From positions 1-29,569 of IMG/VR virus record IMGVR_UViG_3300028610_000690: a stretch of 29,569 nucleotides of DNA. One strand, given 5' to 3'. The notes beneath the pieces were generated by a model. The model saw nothing but the letters and a program-made list of their open reading frames with translations, was not told where the DNA came from and ran no database searches. A program made the position numbers and the translations under genes. Shown here in pieces: positions 696 to 23,716 of the stretch. Numbering within the stretch: the first letter of the stretch is position 1; each line of letters starts with the position of its first letter. Origin of the DNA: a virus (Duplodnaviria; Caudoviricetes).

Positions 696-1580
696 TCAGC
701 TCCTCAAAGTTATATACTTATGGAATGCATAAAGTTCATGAATATGAGGGCGCTTATCGTTTTCTTCATTATGAAGTTCGGCCCATTCTTGAAACTCTTG
801 GCAAATAGTTCCATTATAAAGTAACTTATCTAAGTCTCTATAATACTCTACTTCAGGATGATGTTGCTTAAGAATGTCTTTCATTTCATACCATGCGTCT
901 ATACGAAACCCATCCTGTAGAGGAAACGGGATTCCTTCTAGCTCTGGAACCATCGGATGTTCTGGGTACCGACGCGGATCTTGCTTAGTTATCTGGTGCC
1001 AGTATAGAAAGCTTTCTTCGTGATCTGCCCAAACTCCAGCAATAAAGAAGTCTCTGCAAGCAGAGCGCAACGCTCCCAACGGGCTCTTATAATGTAGATA
1101 ACGCCTTGTACTTCGGGCGGGTATTCGAAGCCCCACCAACGATTGGTGAAGACTTACCTCATAATGTAAGTTAGGATTCCATTTGTATAATAGCTCTCGA
1201 TGATAGTCAGTGTCATGATGTTCATTATTTATGACATTTGTACCAGGAAATGCCACCACATCATACCTTCCCCACGCAGCGCTCATTAACATACGTAGTT
1301 CATTCAACATCTCTGGGGTAGGAAGCTCATCATCATCAAGGCGAAGATGCCATCCTTCTTTAGGGGCATGATCTAAGCATGCTTGGTATGCATCTCTAAA
1401 ACTATCAGCCCATGGGAAATACACAAGATCAGTATTAGAAAAAGACTTCACATATGTTTCTACTTCCAAATCCCGTTGCCCTATGCAGATAACCGTTTGA
1501 TCCACATACGGATGTATCCGGGTCAAATTACGTTTAAGCTTATCCAAGTTAGGAGTTGTGTTACATAAATAACTAAGCAC
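696..1580 (-). CDS. Glycosyltransferase family 2-like (GT-A fold) protein
   Basis: GWHLRLDDDE DxD-type motif, WADSF motif and a later LH motif; clear paralog of 26588..27541. Confidence 0.65.
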   Translation of the reverse strand: MLSYLCNTTPNLDKLKRNLTRIHPYVDQTVICIGQRDLEVETYVKSFSNTDLVYFPWADSFRDAYQACLDHAPKEGWHLRLDDDELPTPEMLNELRMLMSAAWGRYDVVAFPGTNVINNEHHDTDYHRELLYKWNPNLHYEVSLHQSLVGLRIPARSTRRYLHYKSPLGALRSACRDFFIAGVWADHEESFLYWHQITKQDPRRYPEHPMVPELEGIPFPLQDGFRIDAWYEMKDILKQHHPEVEYYRDLDKLLYNGTICQEFQEWAELHNEENDKRPHIHELYAFHKYITLRS

Positions 1581-3531
1581 TCTTCTTCAGCCCATTGGTT
1601 CGGAAGGCCAGCGCATCCTTGGAAGGATTCAAGCTAACAGTAATTTTAGCATCTCTATCTGGTATTTCCTTCTTGAGAATAGCTCGAGCCAGCGGAGTAG
1701 ACAGGTGCTTCTTGACTGCTCTGCGCAGGGGCCTAGCGCCAAACTTCTTGTCAATCCCATTATCCAGGAGGAAATTCTTGGCTCCCGGATTAACCTTCAT
1801 CGTAATGGTCTTACTCTTATGGATCTGTTCAGCCGTTTCATCTAGGATAATATTCAGTACGTGGAGGAAATCATCCTTCTCCAGATCGCGGAAATGAACA
1901 ACGTCATCCACACGATTGAGAAATTCAGGCTTGAACTTCTTCTTGAGAGCTTCTGCCCTGGCTTTGGCATCCTTAGAACTTGATCTATCCGCTACGTCTC
2001 CAAATCCCAGAGTTTTACTAAGCTCCTCTACTTCTTTTACACCAATGTTAGAAGTCATGAGGATCAAAGTCTCGCTAAACGAAACCTTACGACCACCCTT
2101 AGACTCGGTAAGAAGACCATCATCAATGATCTGGAGAATCCGCTCATGGAAGTTGTTGTGCCCCTTCTCCACCTCATCAAAGAGGACTACTGAGAAAGGA
2201 TACTTGGCCACTTCCTTAGTTAGGTGCCCACCATCATCATATCCAACATAGCCAGGGGGAGAACCAGTTAGTTTGGCTACCTCGTGGGGCTGCTGATACT
2301 CCTGACAATCGATTCGCACCAAGTGCGCCCCCAACGTATCTGCCAGAACCTTAGCAGTCTCCGTCTTGCCGACGCCAGTTTTCCCAGTGAAAAGCAGGAC
2401 TCCGATAGGTTCATTGTCTCTCTTGAGACCCACGGAGGCTCTCTGAACAGCATCTGAAATGTGTTCAATTGCCTCATCCTGTCCCACAATCTTCTTCTTC
2501 ATATCTTCAGTGATAGAAAGAAGCTTTTCACTAGTGAGATCCGAGAACTTGATTCCTCGCTTACGAACAGCCCCACTTTGATTGCCTGCTGCTGCCAAAC
2601 TCCTGCTATTCGTACGATGGGTAGCTCGGTTACGCCGACGATACTCTTGTTTAATCTTCTTTAGATTAATATCTTCAAGCTTCAAAAACGGATTGTAAAG
2701 TATCGCAATTTCGTAAAGCTCCCTAACCATATCTTCAGGCTTATGTTTCTTTGAGACCCCCATCTTATCCAACAGATGGAACACATCAGAAAAGTCTTCT
2801 ACACAAAGCTCTACAACTAGGAGATTATACCCACGTGCGGATTCGAACGGGGTACCCCCTAGTAAATTCACCAGGGCATCCTCACTTTCCTCGTATTGAC
2901 GGATATTTATGTGGACACCAGGGGTATTCCACTTATGTCCTACTAAGTCATAGGGCACGTCGCCTCCCATTCCATTTCCTCCGGTGTTATCCGAAAAAGG
3001 ATTGTCCGACGGAAGTTCAGAACCAGAAAAGTTAGTATCCTCCGGATCATCTTCATCCCTGGGAAGACGATCATCCTCATCTAGGATTTCAGGAGCACTA
3101 ATTATCATTCCAGGCCCAAAGTTAGACAGAGGAGGATCATGGTCCCATAGATTGTTTTCAATCAACGGCCTGGCTGCCTCTTTATCCTTCAGACTGGCCT
3201 TAGTCTTTAGAATATTGTTCTCATTGATGAAAATATTCTCGGGTCTAAAACCTGGACTGAGCTTAAACACCAGATTCAAAGCCTCCCTACGAATATCGGC
3301 AAACCGCATTAGAAGCTCGGGACGTTTTCTAATGTGAAAGAAGAACGGCCCAGAGTTAGCCATGCAACTACTCAGTACAAAGTCTTCGTACAAATGCTTG
3401 TAGATAAGACCCTTCTCTGATGCCAAAGTAGCCAGCTTGTCATTCACATCCTCTTCAGGAAATTCAATGACTAGGATGTTGAAATCCGCTGTCTCTAGCA
3501 GCACATTGTGAGTAATGTATCGGTCAGCCAA
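1573..3531 (-). CDS. Clp/Hsp100 AAA+ ATPase with only the ClpA/B/C D2-type module and a non-canonical N-terminal region
   Basis: IVGQDEAI, Walker A GKTGVGKT, GSPPGYVGY pore loop, Walker B LFDEVEK, MTSN sensor, LGF loop, FKPEFLNRVD, GARPLRR; TTG start after GAGGAG. Confidence 0.92.
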   Translation of the reverse strand: MADRYITHNVLLETADFNILVIEFPEEDVNDKLATLASEKGLIYKHLYEDFVLSSCMANSGPFFFHIRKRPELLMRFADIRREALNLVFKLSPGFRPENIFINENNILKTKASLKDKEAARPLIENNLWDHDPPLSNFGPGMIISAPEILDEDDRLPRDEDDPEDTNFSGSELPSDNPFSDNTGGNGMGGDVPYDLVGHKWNTPGVHINIRQYEESEDALVNLLGGTPFESARGYNLLVVELCVEDFSDVFHLLDKMGVSKKHKPEDMVRELYEIAILYNPFLKLEDINLKKIKQEYRRRNRATHRTNSRSLAAAGNQSGAVRKRGIKFSDLTSEKLLSITEDMKKKIVGQDEAIEHISDAVQRASVGLKRDNEPIGVLLFTGKTGVGKTETAKVLADTLGAHLVRIDCQEYQQPHEVAKLTGSPPGYVGYDDGGHLTKEVAKYPFSVVLFDEVEKGHNNFHERILQIIDDGLLTESKGGRKVSFSETLILMTSNIGVKEVEELSKTLGFGDVADRSSSKDAKARAEALKKKFKPEFLNRVDDVVHFRDLEKDDFLHVLNIILDETAEQIHKSKTITMKVNPGAKNFLLDNGIDKKFGARPLRRAVKKHLSTPLARAILKKEIPDRDAKITVSLNPSKDALAFRTNGLKKSA

Positions 3532-7232: not shown

Positions 7233-7483
7233 ATTCGCCCCAATTTATGGCTTCTTCCCATCCATCGCAGTGCAAGATTTACTTCTAACTCGCAGCTTGG
7301 GCAGAACAGTTCGTCTGGATAATCCCCAACAGTACTCAAGGGCTGCATCGTATGATACGTTAAGTAACACCAAGGACATAGAATATCATGCTTCTCCATT
7401 TGTTTAGCCAAATACTCTACAAATTTCTTATCGTCAACCCTCTGACCTTCAGTATTTATTCCTCTGAAGATTATATCCATCAT
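7229..7483 (-). CDS. Small zinc-ribbon hypothetical protein
   Basis: CPWC...CPSC; AAGGAG RBS. Confidence 0.7.
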   Translation of the reverse strand: MMDIIFRGINTEGQRVDDKKFVEYLAKQMEKHDILCPWCYLTYHTMQPLSTVGDYPDELFCPSCELEVNLALRWMGRSHKLGRI

Positions 7484-7495
7484 TTTAATTCTCCT

Positions 7496-7812
7496 TGCAA
7501 CCCGTTCTGTTGCCCGGTGGGTCAGTCCGCGCTTTCCTATTGCAGTATTAGTGCTTAGGCAGCGATTGCAACCTGTTCCACGTCCTTGGAAACGAGTTCC
7601 TTAGCGTGTAGGCGAGTTGCGTACTCTACGAGAGAGTTGCCAATTATATATGTGAGCCTATTTAACATGGCCTGCTCATCCATGGGCTGCGTCCCTATAC
7701 TTCATCAACACGTCGAATCCAATTCATCCCCAGTTTATCCAATGAACTGCTTGCTGGAGATGCGGGGGATCGAACCCCGGTCCGCCCTGACTCTATATAG
7801 AGCCGGGTTACA
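7496..7812 (-). ncRNA. ssrA: tmRNA, circularly permuted (two-piece) gene
   Basis: On the minus strand the acceptor piece comes first (GGAC-CGGGG-TTCGATC-CCCCG-CATCTCC-A, ending at 7755), then a 23-nt intervening segment, then the coding piece starting GGGGATG AATTGGATTCGAC at 7731. It shows a 7-bp acceptor stem with G3.U70, pseudoknot 1, and a tag frame at 7641-7555 (GNSLVEYATRLHAKELVSKDVEQVAIAA*). Outer ends are approximate. Confidence 0.92.
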
Positions 7813-7869
7813 GCCATCTAATACTCATCTTTCTTAATCTGTCTTGTGCTACCGTCCCCACACTTGCAT

Positions 7870-9601: not shown

Positions 9602-9844
9602 TTAATCTCTTAACTCCCTTAGCCCTCTTGGTTCGTAAGGACTTTTAGGCTTATAATTCCCTATCTTTCTTGGTTCGTAAGGACTCTTAGTCTTACGATA
9701 CCCAACCTTCAAAGCCTTGCGTAGCTTAGGTAGGGTCTTCTGACAAAAGAGACATGTCCAACCGATCATCATGTCACAACTACATGCCTGGTTGAGAACG
9801 TCTTGTAGTAACTGTTTGTTAGACACTGTTTCTTTACGTATCAT
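9602..9844 (-). CDS. Hypothetical protein with a duplicated KSPYEPR peptide
   Basis: CSC...CLFC; ATGA overlap with the EndoVII stop. Confidence 0.65.
   Translation of the reverse strand: MIRKETVSNKQLLQDVLNQACSCDMMIGWTCLFCQKTLPKLRKALKVGYRKTKSPYEPRKIGNYKPKSPYEPRGLRELRD
9626..9690. repeat. Two-copy 23-bp direct repeat, 42-nt period, inside a CDS
   Basis: tcttggttcgtaaggact(t/c)ttag at 9626-9648 and 9668-9690; in frame, encodes KSPYEPR twice. Confidence 0.85.
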
Positions 9845-10257
9845 GCTTTCTTCTCCGACGCTTTCCTCAAATATGCTATTGCAGTCCGTAATCTTCGGGG
9901 ACTATCCTTAAACATCCCTAATCCTGAGTTACAATTGCTACACAATAGTCCTCGAACCTTATCGGTCTTATGGTTATGGTCGATTACTAACTTCTTCTCA
10001 GGAATTGTTGCACAAATAGCACAACTACCTTCTTGTTCCCACATCATTTGAGCATACCTATCTACGGTCAGACCGGGGTAGTTACGTACTATCGCCTCAA
10101 CAGTTTTGCAGCCCTTACATCTATGGTCTAGTCCATCCTTTTTAGTGCGGTCCCTATCGAATTGGTCGTTAGGTAAATACTTGTAACAGTAATCACACTC
10201 TTTATTCTTATCAAGATCTACGCCCACTTCACCATAAAGCATATTTTGTATCGCCAT
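9841..10257 (-). CDS. Recombination endonuclease VII family protein
   Basis: CAIC...LVIDHNHKTDKVRGLLCSNCNSGLGMFKDS...AIAYL, plus an N-terminal CxxC...CxxC zinc module. Confidence 0.92.
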   Translation of the reverse strand: MAIQNMLYGEVGVDLDKNKECDYCYKYLPNDQFDRDRTKKDGLDHRCKGCKTVEAIVRNYPGLTVDRYAQMMWEQEGSCAICATIPEKKLVIDHNHKTDKVRGLLCSNCNSGLGMFKDSPRRLRTAIAYLRKASEKKA

Positions 10258-17664: not shown

Positions 17665-18116
17665 TAATCGTCCTCAAGATCTGATTCATCCACACTGACG
17701 GTGGCGTGTGTCTTACGCTTACCTTGTTCTTCCAAGACTTCCTTTTTGGTGCCAGCAATAATTCCAGCACCTAGTGAACGCTCGGGGCGAGGTGTGGGGT
17801 TGAATCTCTTCGTCAGCTTCTCTTGAAGCTCCTTAGAAGTTGCGCCTTCCTCGCTATTAGCGAGCTGCTTCATAGCTTCCTCATAAAGTTCATCCTTAGG
17901 GGCATGGGCGGACACACCCTTCTTGCTCCGCTTTTTCTTAGAGCCCTTGGGACGGCCAGCCTTGCGCTTACCAGGGGCTTTCGCAGGCGGCGTCCCCTCA
18001 TCATCGGCTTCGCCTTCCATAAGCTCCCTTAGAAGCTCAATCTTTGTCTCAAAGACGTCGATCTTATCCTCATACTCTTCAATCTTTGCTTGCAATGCCT
18101 CGTTGAAATTAGTCAT
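17664..18116 (-). CDS. Hypothetical protein, coiled coil plus AT-hook-like basic motif
   Basis: N-terminal heptads; KRKAGRPKGSKKKR; acidic C-terminus. Confidence 0.7.
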   Translation of the reverse strand: MTNFNEALQAKIEEYEDKIDVFETKIELLRELMEGEADDEGTPPAKAPGKRKAGRPKGSKKKRSKKGVSAHAPKDELYEEAMKQLANSEEGATSKELQEKLTKRFNPTPRPERSLGAGIIAGTKKEVLEEQGKRKTHATVSVDESDLEDD

Positions 18117-18714
18117 CGGATTTTGTCCTCACACTTTTCTCATGGATTTCATCGATAATACCAAAGTCCTTTGCTTCCATTGGAGTCATCCACTTATCCC
18201 GTTCAAAATGGGATTTAATCTCTTCAAGAGAATTACCAGTATTCTTAGACAAGATCGTCATGAGAAGATCATTCTTTCGCATCATTTCGTCATATCTGAT
18301 AGAGACATCGGGGGCAGACCCTTCCGCCCCGCCTTGTACCATGTGCATCATGATACTGGTATGAGGAAGTGAGAACCGCTTACCGACCGTACCCCCAGAT
18401 AACAAAAAGCACCCCATACTTACAGCCTGACCCACACATACAGTCACAATATCAGGTTTGACGTAGTGCATGGTGTCGTAAATGCCTAGACCCGCAGTAA
18501 CTGATCCACCCGGGGAGTTAATATACATGAAGACATCTTTCTCGGCGTCGTCACTCTCCAGGAACAGCAACTGGGCTATGATGGCATTTGCCACTTGGTC
18601 ATTGATTGGGGTGCCTACAAAAATAATTCTGTCTTTGAGTAGTCGGGAGTAAAGATCGTATACTTTCTCGTTACTGCCATCCTTCTCGATCACTACAGGC
18701 AAAGGGTAGCTCAT
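18109..18714 (-). CDS. clpP: ATP-dependent Clp protease proteolytic subunit
   Basis: YDLYSRLLKDRIIF, AQLLFLE, YINSPGGSVTAG; catalytic S (GQAVSMG), H (IMMH) and D (ERDKWM); FGIID. Confidence 0.97.
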   Translation of the reverse strand: MSYPLPVVIEKDGSNEKVYDLYSRLLKDRIIFVGTPINDQVANAIIAQLLFLESDDAEKDVFMYINSPGGSVTAGLGIYDTMHYVKPDIVTVCVGQAVSMGCFLLSGGTVGKRFSLPHTSIMMHMVQGGAEGSAPDVSIRYDEMMRKNDLLMTILSKNTGNSLEEIKSHFERDKWMTPMEAKDFGIIDEIHEKSVRTKSDD

Positions 18715-19095: not shown

Positions 19096-19899
19096 CTAGC
19101 TATGGTACGTCTTAATCTCACCAATATAGTGGTTTTTCATGTGCTCAGCGTGGGCTTTAGAAACCAACTTGCAACCCTCACGTATCTCTTCCGCCGTAGC
19201 ACTCTTTAACCGACCATCCGCCAACATGTGGTGCCTCCTACACAGAGGAAGCCAATTAGTACCATCAAGTGGATTGTTTTGGTGGTCACCGTCAAGATGA
19301 TGGCAGTCTACTGCCTTTACATTCTCACCTTCAACCTTATCACAGCCTGGATAGAAACATTTTAGAGGGTCGCCAAAAATCTTCTTCAGTCGGTGTTTAC
19401 CCTTACCAAAATAGAGGTGTCTAGAAACGCCTCCCTTCCAAGCATTGCCTTTCTCAGCGGACTGGGACTCAGAAATGTGTTTGCGCCTCTCATCCGTAAA
19501 CTCTACCTGACTAAGCTTAAGTCGAGTAAGATCACTTACGTCATGACCTAACAAACCAGCGCTGATAGCCAGCTTGTGTCCTTCGGAAAGCTGAGAACCA
19601 AGACGGGCTTGTCTAATCTTCTCAATAGCGTCCGGAGTATGCTTCCGACCCTGGTTAGCAATGGAAATCTTGAGACCCTTAGAGGTCTGCTTGCTAACCT
19701 TACCTTTCTTCCTGAGGATAAACCTCAAGCGTGCGACCTGAATGCGTCTTCTCGTTAGAGGAGACACAATAGGAGCGCCGGGAAATTCCTGTCTATATGT
19801 CTTAGCAGTATGCTTATGCTTTCTTAAATGACCTGCTAAGGACTTAAATCGGGTAAAACAAACCTCACACTTTACGGTGGGGGAAAGTCGGCCTGCCAT
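19096..19899 (-). CDS. Free-standing HNH endonuclease with NUMOD3-like repeats and an N-terminal Ros/MucR-like zinc finger
   Basis: CEVCFTRFKSLAGHLRKH...YRQEFP; GRKHTPDAIEKIR-type repeats; AWKGG; CHHLDGDHQNN...NWLPLCRRHH. Confidence 0.8.
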   Translation of the reverse strand: MAGRLSPTVKCEVCFTRFKSLAGHLRKHKHTAKTYRQEFPGAPIVSPLTRRRIQVARLRFILRKKGKVSKQTSKGLKISIANQGRKHTPDAIEKIRQARLGSQLSEGHKLAISAGLLGHDVSDLTRLKLSQVEFTDERRKHISESQSAEKGNAWKGGVSRHLYFGKGKHRLKKIFGDPLKCFYPGCDKVEGENVKAVDCHHLDGDHQNNPLDGTNWLPLCRRHHMLADGRLKSATAEEIREGCKLVSKAHAEHMKNHYIGEIKTYHS

Positions 19900-22833: not shown

Positions 22834-23238
22834 TTACGCGATTCTGTTTGTGTCCGAATTATGTCCGGGCTGCGCATCAAATAAGAAATCTCCAATACCC
22901 ACACCGTGAAGATCGAAAAATCCAACTGGAACCTCAAGTGCGTACTGAATATCTTTTCTTGTAGTTGCTTGGGTGAACCCATACCCAGGATCAAGCCTGT
23001 AGATCTCCACCACTTCTCCATAATCGGTAACAAATGCTACATCTACTGGGAATAATAGTCCCTTGGGGGTCATAATAGGGCTGAACTTACAGCCGAAGTC
23101 AAAAACCATTCCATCAAAAGGATCTAAACTAGCGACTCCGCTAAGACCTCGGATTAATTCCGGGCCTGTTGTTGCTAAAGAGAAGTTGAATTCTTTATCT
23201 CCTAGCGAAAACTTTCTACCTGTGGGTAACTCGGGCAT
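22834..23238 (-). CDS. DUF192 family protein
   Basis: RGLSG...DGMVFDF...FPVDVAFV...G.VV...YALEVPVG...IGD. Confidence 0.85.
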   Translation of the reverse strand: MPELPTGRKFSLGDKEFNFSLATTGPELIRGLSGVASLDPFDGMVFDFGCKFSPIMTPKGLLFPVDVAFVTDYGEVVEIYRLDPGYGFTQATTRKDIQYALEVPVGFFDLHGVGIGDFLFDAQPGHNSDTNRIA

Positions 23239-23716
23239 CGATTGCTCTCCTTCGACGAATGTATCTTGATAAATCCTTAGACGTCATGTCTATCTGAACA
23301 CTTACACTATTCAGAACACCAACTACTTGGGGAAATTTTATAGACAGCTCGTCAAAGACATCAGATCGAATATTACTATAAGCAGTCTGACCAATGTCGA
23401 TGTAATCCCCTAGACAAAACCAAGTCTTTCTAGACTCCAGACTATCAGGAAATATACCCGAAACAAACAAAGCCACATCACCGGTAACTCGTAGATATTC
23501 TCTACGGATTAGACCGTCAGAGTCGAGGGCTTTGCGTAGTAAGTCATTTAGGAACACACTTCTGGAAACCATGTCATGAACACCAGAGGAGAGATTGACC
23601 ATTACTTCAATCACATAAGTCTCCGCGTATGGGCTGATCTCAAGTTCATTGTTTTCTAAAGATGTACTTATCAAATCCGTAAAAGCCTCTTCCAGAGTCT
23701 CTTTTACGATCCTCAA
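23216..23716 (-). CDS. Conserved-looking hypothetical protein
   Basis: LRVTGDVALFVSGIFPDSL...DYIDIGQTAY recalls an uncharacterised bacterial family (unverified); TTG start after AGGAGG. Confidence 0.7.
   Translation of the reverse strand: MRIVKETLEEAFTDLISTSLENNELEISPYAETYVIEVMVNLSSGVHDMVSRSVFLNDLLRKALDSDGLIRREYLRVTGDVALFVSGIFPDSLESRKTWFCLGDYIDIGQTAYSNIRSDVFDELSIKFPQVVGVLNSVSVQIDMTSKDLSRYIRRRRAIDARVTHR

Follow-up and report, generated by a model that had tools for sequence, protein, structure and literature searches.

Architecture of the tmRNA gene

The window, by which the whole stretch of 29,569 nucleotides analysed here is meant, carries a circularly permuted tmRNA gene at about 7817-7496 on the minus strand, as found by sequence inspection, ARAGORN and Rfam. 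The original prediction of a permuted two-piece tmRNA in a phage-like genome is supported by both programs: ARAGORN returned a single permuted tmRNA (tmRNA*) at 7464-7844 on the minus strand with the tag GNSLVEYATRLHAKELVSKDVEQVAIAA*, and RF04321 (tmRNA_permuted) was the only Rfam match of the window over cut-off, scoring 98.5 bits (E 2.8e-18, model positions 1-213) against a gathering cut-off of 47. Both also agree with the order of parts that had been read from the sequence, in which the 3' tRNA-like half lies upstream of the 5' half.

Read along the minus strand, the gene begins with an acceptor piece (7755-7817; about 63 nt before CCA addition), which is delimited by the sequence, Rfam and covariation and comprises the 3' strand of helix 2, the T arm, the 3' acceptor strand and A7755; its 5' end at 7817 is inferred from a conserved ATGG start. 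An intervening spacer of 23 nt (7732-7754), evident from the sequence, the Logan contigs and the family alignment, leads to the 5' part of the coding piece (7685-7731; Rfam and covariation), which contains the acceptor strand 7731-7725, a D-loop mimic and the 5' strand of helix 2 including helix 2d. The tRNA-like elements listed in the original prediction are all present: the 7-bp acceptor stem with its G3.U70 pair is formed by 7762-7756 and 7731-7725 (pairing 7/7), the discriminator A73 is A7755, the T stem consists of 7779-7775 and 7767-7763, and the helix-2 pairing between the pieces joins 7802-7796 to 7699-7693. In the window, A73 is followed by GCA, so CCA is not encoded.

Helix 2d (7815-7811 with 7689-7685, minus strand), which pairs fully in 7/7 family members, is followed by pseudoknot 1 (7653-7684, minus strand), located where it had been proposed and made up of the stems 7684-7680/7670-7666 and 7678-7674/7657-7653. 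The predicted ATAATT resume context stands ahead of the resume codon (7641), which opens a tag reading frame of 28 codons plus TAA (7555-7641, minus strand; GNSLVEYATRLHAKELVSKDVEQVAIAA), identified by ARAGORN and by frame comparison across the clade. Downstream of the stop codon lies a clade-conserved hairpin with a 7-nt loop, CURAYMC (7542-7554, minus strand), each of whose three pairs shows double-sided changes, and then a terminal pseudoknot, pk2 (7496-7532, minus strand), with the stems 7532-7527/7517-7512 (one G.G mismatch) and 7524-7519/7503-7498, recognized by alpha-model alignment and conserved pairing. Helix 2d, the start of the acceptor piece, the tag, the post-stop hairpin and the non-encoded CCA had not been mentioned in the original prediction. 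The fold of the whole strand is no better than that of shuffled sequences (z -0.54) in a folding model that does without pseudoknots. The promoter scan showed neither a sigma-70 promoter nor a terminator on the minus strand, and Rfam gave no riboswitch match in the window.

The terminal pseudoknot encloses GGCAACAGAA at 7514-7505 and carries the GCAACAGAA motif of the RF01849 type. The alphaproteobacterial resemblance of this 3' end, noted in the original prediction, is supported, as the Rfam alpha model aligns there and the same pseudoknot occurs in two alphaproteobacterial plasmid tmRNAs. The motif is not exclusive to the alpha type, and the 3' pseudoknot also stands directly after the tag in the one-piece gene L094 and in two seeds of the Nawrocki supplement. 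About 240 IMG/VR stretches carry the 3' motif of the window gene; among 120 such viral loci fetched, ARAGORN called 95 permuted and one one-piece, leaving 24 uncalled. Unannotated two-piece tmRNA genes were also seen on two alphaproteobacterial megaplasmids, NC_010510.1 and NZ_CP069356.1 (L417 and L418).

The 9-bp helix that had been thought to join the outer ends, which also appears in the single-strand MFE fold of the window, did not hold up: it reaches 9 bp in the window alone, and 4-6 bp in six of six relatives, which is the level of shuffled sequences (4.2-5.1). It was rejected, since the same 3' bases pair over 5-7 bp with the loop of the terminal pseudoknot in eight of eight sequences.

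An assembly artefact was ruled out by a second assembly and by a Logan contig from a different study. The second assembly, a 47.7-kb IMG/VR contig, is 99.96% identical across the 16 kb compared, and the Logan contig shows 0 differences across 7694-7821. Since an independent contig thus crosses the junction without differences, the gene order is not a product of assembly. Logan contigs bridge the spacer as well, one of which (X1) possibly represents the source sample.

Phage genome and its relatives

The window is a virus record estimated by CheckV to be 10% complete, and its 47.7-kb twin 16%, both being fragments. Every gene of the window lies on one strand, and these include polA, ribonucleotide reductase, PhoH, ClpP, a Clp ATPase and sugar-modifying enzymes. 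No capsid, terminase or other structural gene was found in the window, and the twin likewise showed neither a capsid nor a terminase gene. The DNA polymerase marks a discrete clade, within which identity is 57-99% before it falls to about 40%; this clade consists of polA-type jumbo phages of subsurface or marine samples. In the complete relative G157 (295,848 bp, terminal repeats), 32 of the 46 window ORFs have counterparts by homology, mostly in the same order; G157 also encodes a terminase, a major head protein, a tape measure and 33 tRNAs, together with a CCA-adding enzyme, peptide deformylase, TilS and a sigma factor. The structural genes of G157 and the synteny, along with the class given by IMG/VR, suggest that the window forms part of the roughly 300-kb genome of a tailed jumbo phage. 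As to the host, the look-alikes of 23216-23716 in the Atlas belong to Planctomycetota, Acidobacteriota and Rokuibacteriota, at low recognition.

Several other genes of these phages deserve mention. Beyond the left end of the window, in G001, a RuBisCO large-chain-like protein of 395 aa (L172:11537-12721; PF00016, E 5e-34) is encoded within a phage cluster of sugar-nucleotide and methyltransferase genes. Patatin-like phospholipases resembling CBASS effectors, under cut-off, occur in both phages (L172:3943-4899 and L409:11950-12882), and a weak match to the IscB model was obtained in G157 (L402:6092-6739). In the window itself, an HNH-type homing endonuclease (19096-19899) sits beside ribonucleotide reductase, and endonuclease VII is encoded at 9841-10257.

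A covarying family of permuted genes

Nine members of the tmRNA family were found: the window gene, L044, L204, L205, L207 (partial), L318, L319, L320 and L429. The gene is permuted in all eight members that show both pieces (one-piece members, 0/8), and a one-piece gene over the RF00023 cut-off was found in 0/5 records searched. RF04321 scored over cut-off in L048, L204, L205, L318, L319 and L320, with 56.3-101.4 bits among the relatives; ARAGORN gives no call for L319 or L320. The same model found nothing (0/5) in three polA phages of distant kinship and in two fragments from the clade, which are 5-7% complete, nor (0/2) in G159, a 12% fragment, and G161, which has a distant ClpP. A final pattern scan of viral sequences yielded 17 matches, of which four were real (three known, one new) and 13 due to chance.

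Pairing has been maintained through double-sided changes in the acceptor stem (with G3.U70 and A73), the T stem, helix 2d and both stems of pseudoknot 1, all of which pair fully in 7/7 members. Among these seven, the spacer measures 17-23 nt and CCA is encoded in two.

By eye, a hairpin ends 3-8 bases upstream of the conserved ATGG start in L318, L319 and L320, and may set the 5' end of their acceptor piece; it is not obvious in the window. Upstream of the acceptor piece of L204, likewise by eye, an ORF resembling an HNH-type endonuclease (L204:4080-4607, motif HLDDN...NLEW) ends with a stop codon that abuts the piece; it is possibly a free-standing homing nuclease.

A long, conserved tag peptide

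The tag measures 28-32 codons across the clade, and the frame is open in 8/8 members, ending in IAA-stop in the window. Differences at codon positions 1, 2 and 3 number 298, 267 and 443 over 798 codon pairs, which are not independent of one another. In six aligned tags, S, Y, A, L and E are invariant in the first half, as is the terminal AA. The ninth member, L429, has kept the first half, while its middle has turned basic; the tag of L320 is an outlier with a Gln start and an LTA end. An amphipathic-helix reading of the tag was discarded, the moment exceeding that of shuffles at p<0.05 in just two of eight tags. The commonest length of tmRNA tags is 10 aa according to the accessible part of PMC11915505. 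Tags of 24-32 aa were also noticed in the one-piece tmRNAs of other large phages (L174, L180, L189, L190 and L196), and long tags thus recur in jumbo phages.

Proposed working of the RNA

The reading we prefer, and regard as probably correct, is that this clade-conserved permuted tmRNA is likely cut into two paired RNAs and likely alanylated, and that it would rescue ribosomes with host SmpB and send the stalled product, bearing the 28-residue tag, to a Clp protease. Judging by the bacterial two-piece system, as described in the accessible portions of PMC3985003 and PMC11915505, RNase P would cut the precursor at 7731 and 3' trimming would follow after A7755. CCA would then be added by a host enzyme or by a phage enzyme such as the one encoded by G157, and the two RNAs (one of about 66 nt, the other of about 235 nt) would stay base-paired and, by analogy with the bacterial system, be charged with alanine. 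Together with host SmpB, the charged RNA would free stalled ribosomes and tag their products, as in trans-translation. SmpB was found in 0/5 records searched, two of which are complete relatives.

The absence of SmpB from these records would also suit a quite different role, in which the RNA acts as a decoy or inhibitor and titrates host SmpB or alanyl-tRNA synthetase instead of tagging. A phage form reduced to the tRNA-like domain inhibits host tmRNA, as far as the accessible text of PMC4131195 and PMC11915505 goes. However, the genes described here retain a full coding piece, pseudoknot 1, the resume context and a tag with codon-position bias, and such a role appears highly improbable for them.

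Clp machinery and a candidate tag reader

The step to a particular protease is the weakest of the proposed sequence. A hydrophobic Ala-Ala end suits Clp proteases under the ssrA rules, and that of the clade tag might serve the Clp protease of the host or that of the phage. The window encodes both components of the latter on the minus strand. The ClpP protease (18109-18714) has Ser, His and Asp invariant in the clade alignment. The single-ring Clp ATPase (1573-3531), a candidate tag reader, combines a C-terminal half resembling ClpA/ClpB NBD2 with a clade-only N-terminal region of about 310 aa. The full-length model of the ATPase aligned to 4lj4 over 311 residues (Z 31.5, rmsd 5.2; residues 317-637 covered), and an invariant GFG loop is present, which we take to be the ClpP-docking loop. 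Some homologues of the ATPase carry inteins.

The N-terminal 330 aa were found nowhere but in this clade-like set, in 66 proteins that are 49-99% identical and without exception fused to the AAA module. Two confidently folded domains with an acidic linker between them are predicted for the region. Foldseek found no match to it at E<=0.001 in PDB and BFVD, which need not mean a new fold; its weak hits were to tail assembly chaperones and to a single AAA protein of a phage, and the Atlas offered no usable match. Alongside the tmRNA, the ATPase is present on L044, in G157, G158 and G160 (these three being 3/5 searched) and in G167.

These features raise the possibility that the tag, by a docking helix in its conserved first half, may bind the N-terminal region of the phage's own ATPase, so that tagged products would be routed to phage ClpP and not to the host protease. 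The restriction of the N-terminal region to 66 AAA-fused proteins speaks for such a route, as does the conservation of the first half of the tag while the middle ranges from acidic to basic. A complex predicted for the G157 tag and residues 1-300 of the G157 ATPase scored 0.58, compared with 0.00 for the best of three controls; the runs share at least 90% of contacts, and the partner pLDDT is at least 56. This pass is not obviously a product of memory, because the domain has no solved look-alike at E<=0.001. The mark that it passed was reached by 116/157 solved and 2/215 mismatched pairs, but scores at 0.60 or under comprise just 18/157 solved pairs plus both passing mismatches, and the tool rates a pass at such a score more often wrong than right. 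Moreover, the Clp genes lie 4 kb and 10.5 kb away from the tmRNA rather than adjacent to it, such genes are common in large phages, the tags end in an ordinary hydrophobic-Ala-Ala, and the amphipathic moment exceeds that of shuffles in only the two tags mentioned above. Taken together, delivery to the phage's own protease must be regarded as unlikely. If true, it would mean that these phages reroute host translation quality control, and the tag and ATPase would constitute an orthogonal pair of degron and unfoldase in which the adaptor is built in, the degron being of use in engineering.

Origin of the permutation

The phage tmRNA clade is monophyletic (SH-aLRT 97). We are somewhat inclined to derive its permuted gene from an old capture out of an alphaproteobacterial-type two-piece pool circulating among aquatic phages; the captured gene would then have diverged and its tag have lengthened. 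The breakpoint and the start of helix 2d are the same as in RF04321, and the terminal pseudoknot, common to the RF01849 consensus and the Methylobacterium and Microvirga plasmid tmRNAs, occurs in viral loci that are permuted in 95 of 120 cases and one-piece in a single one. A profile of the post-stop region reached at least 10 bits in 14/46 permuted tags and in 0/48 one-piece tags, a comparison which is biased because the permuted set was selected by the same motif. Capture across hosts has been published for Melnitz, according to the available text of PMC9004378. On the other hand, neither the tag nor the CURAYMC hairpin of the clade was seen in any bacterium that could have been the donor, and the 5' half and pseudoknot 1 are closer to one-piece genes.

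The latter point leads to the alternative that the gene was permuted independently, within the phage lineage, from a one-piece tmRNA. The 5' half and pseudoknot 1 score a median of 13.3 bits against Elusimicrobiota loci that were not chosen by pseudoknot 1 (19/27 at 10 bits or above), and a median of just 3.7 bits against other permuted phage tags (4/46 at that level); both the permuted and the one-piece comparison sets are partly biased by the patterns used for selection. The pseudoknot 1 pattern of the window matches five of 185,579 genomes, all of them Elusimicrobiota, four being called one-piece. Such a match is not clade-wide, however, since the deeper members carry other pseudoknot 1 stems, and the 3' motif occurs in 0/30 Elusimicrobiota loci. 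Elusimicrobiota were rejected as donor or host on these two grounds and on that of the permuted gene being found in 0/5.

The model scores cut both ways. The window lies under the cut-off of the alpha model RF01849 (44.6<50), its score being lowered by the long tag, which costs bits, and under that of the beta model RF01850 (64.6<84; 67.1 for L048 and 58.0 for L205), which agrees with a separate permutation, the alpha score also being at odds with capture; the relative L204 nevertheless exceeds the alpha cut-off (65.4). The occurrence of the 3' pseudoknot after the tag in one-piece L094 and the two Nawrocki seeds likewise suits permutation within the phage lineage, whereas the lack of one-piece members in the clade (0/8) does not. 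Among the trees, which were built on 154 columns, FastTree (84 rows) places the clade among one-piece rows with supports of 0.32/0.86/0.09, but the AU test does not reject a single clade that unites it with other permuted genes (p=0.87), and the tree constrained in this way is better by 16 lnL. The AU test was made from a 44-row quick tree, the 40 rows omitted being the one-piece rows selected by pattern and, of the permuted rows, the 20 richest in AT. An independent permutation is thus conceivable, though doubtful; if true, it would add one more origin of the split form.

Two further permuted phage tmRNAs, L089 and L168, with tags of 26-27 aa, have a one-piece-like helix 2 and pseudoknot 1, and L089 groups with one-piece rows in FastTree; they possibly represent a separate permutation.

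Comparison with known systems

The statement accompanying the original prediction, that the phage tmRNAs known so far are one-piece, has to be abandoned in view of both the 95 permuted loci mentioned above and the literature. In the accessible text of Buchholz 2022 (PMC9004378), ARAGORN assigns 53 of 133 unique phage structures to the two-piece type, not all of them validated, and the carriers named there are Methylophilales phage Melnitz, pelagi- and cyanophages and Caulobacter phiCbK-like phages. Like those of the Melnitz type, as far as that text describes them, the gene studied here is permuted and resides in a large tailed phage; the clade differs from them in its tag of 28-32 aa, its spacer of 17-23 nt and its CURAYMC hairpin, and the window has no riboswitch match. 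Among 50,697 cultured-phage records, no match was found for the window gene, and just T-arm matches with at most 12% coverage for that of L204. The literature search returned no paper on this tmRNA family, which may already be catalogued in the 97,179-sequence tmRNA database or in supplements, and none in which a phage-encoded Clp ATPase reads a phage tag; for Magnetococcus tmRNA, nothing was found in the search or in the accessible part of PMC3590771.

The bacterial two-piece tmRNAs (RF04321, RF01849 and RF01850) have the same order of parts, tRNA-like domain, helix 2 and two tag-flanking pseudoknots, an arrangement of pseudoknots that the available portion of PMC3985003 describes for two-piece tmRNA, and the terminal pseudoknot is shared by the clade and the alpha type. 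Compared with them, the clade tag is about three times the commonest length of 10 aa given in the consulted portion of PMC11915505, CCA is encoded in only two of seven members, and one relative exceeds the cut-off of the alpha model while the window stays under both the alpha and the beta cut-off. The one-piece tmRNA of Elusimicrobiota (RF00023) has in five genomes a pseudoknot 1 nearly identical to that of the window, stem 2 showing a compensatory change; it differs in being one-piece, in its short tags and in its 3' end.

Huge phages with tmRNA have been published (PMC7162821, in the part accessible), and the cultured Bacillus phage G has, according to the available text of PMC12484599, a tmRNA plus its own ClpP/ClpX. 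Phage G thus resembles the clade in being a jumbo phage that encodes Clp protease components of its own besides tRNAs and a tmRNA, but that text lists its tmRNA as linear, with a tag of 13 aa, whereas that of the clade is permuted with a tag of 28-32 aa, and its ATPase is ClpX, as opposed to a ClpA/B-NBD2-like ATPase with a clade-only N-terminal region. With a compact and well-covarying family, and with a long tag conserved at the protein level and its candidate reader in the same genomes, the question of what phages use tmRNA for becomes directly testable with one peptide and one protein domain. The two-piece tmRNA of phages as such is published and frequent; what is new here is a family with a long conserved tag and a clade-specific hairpin.
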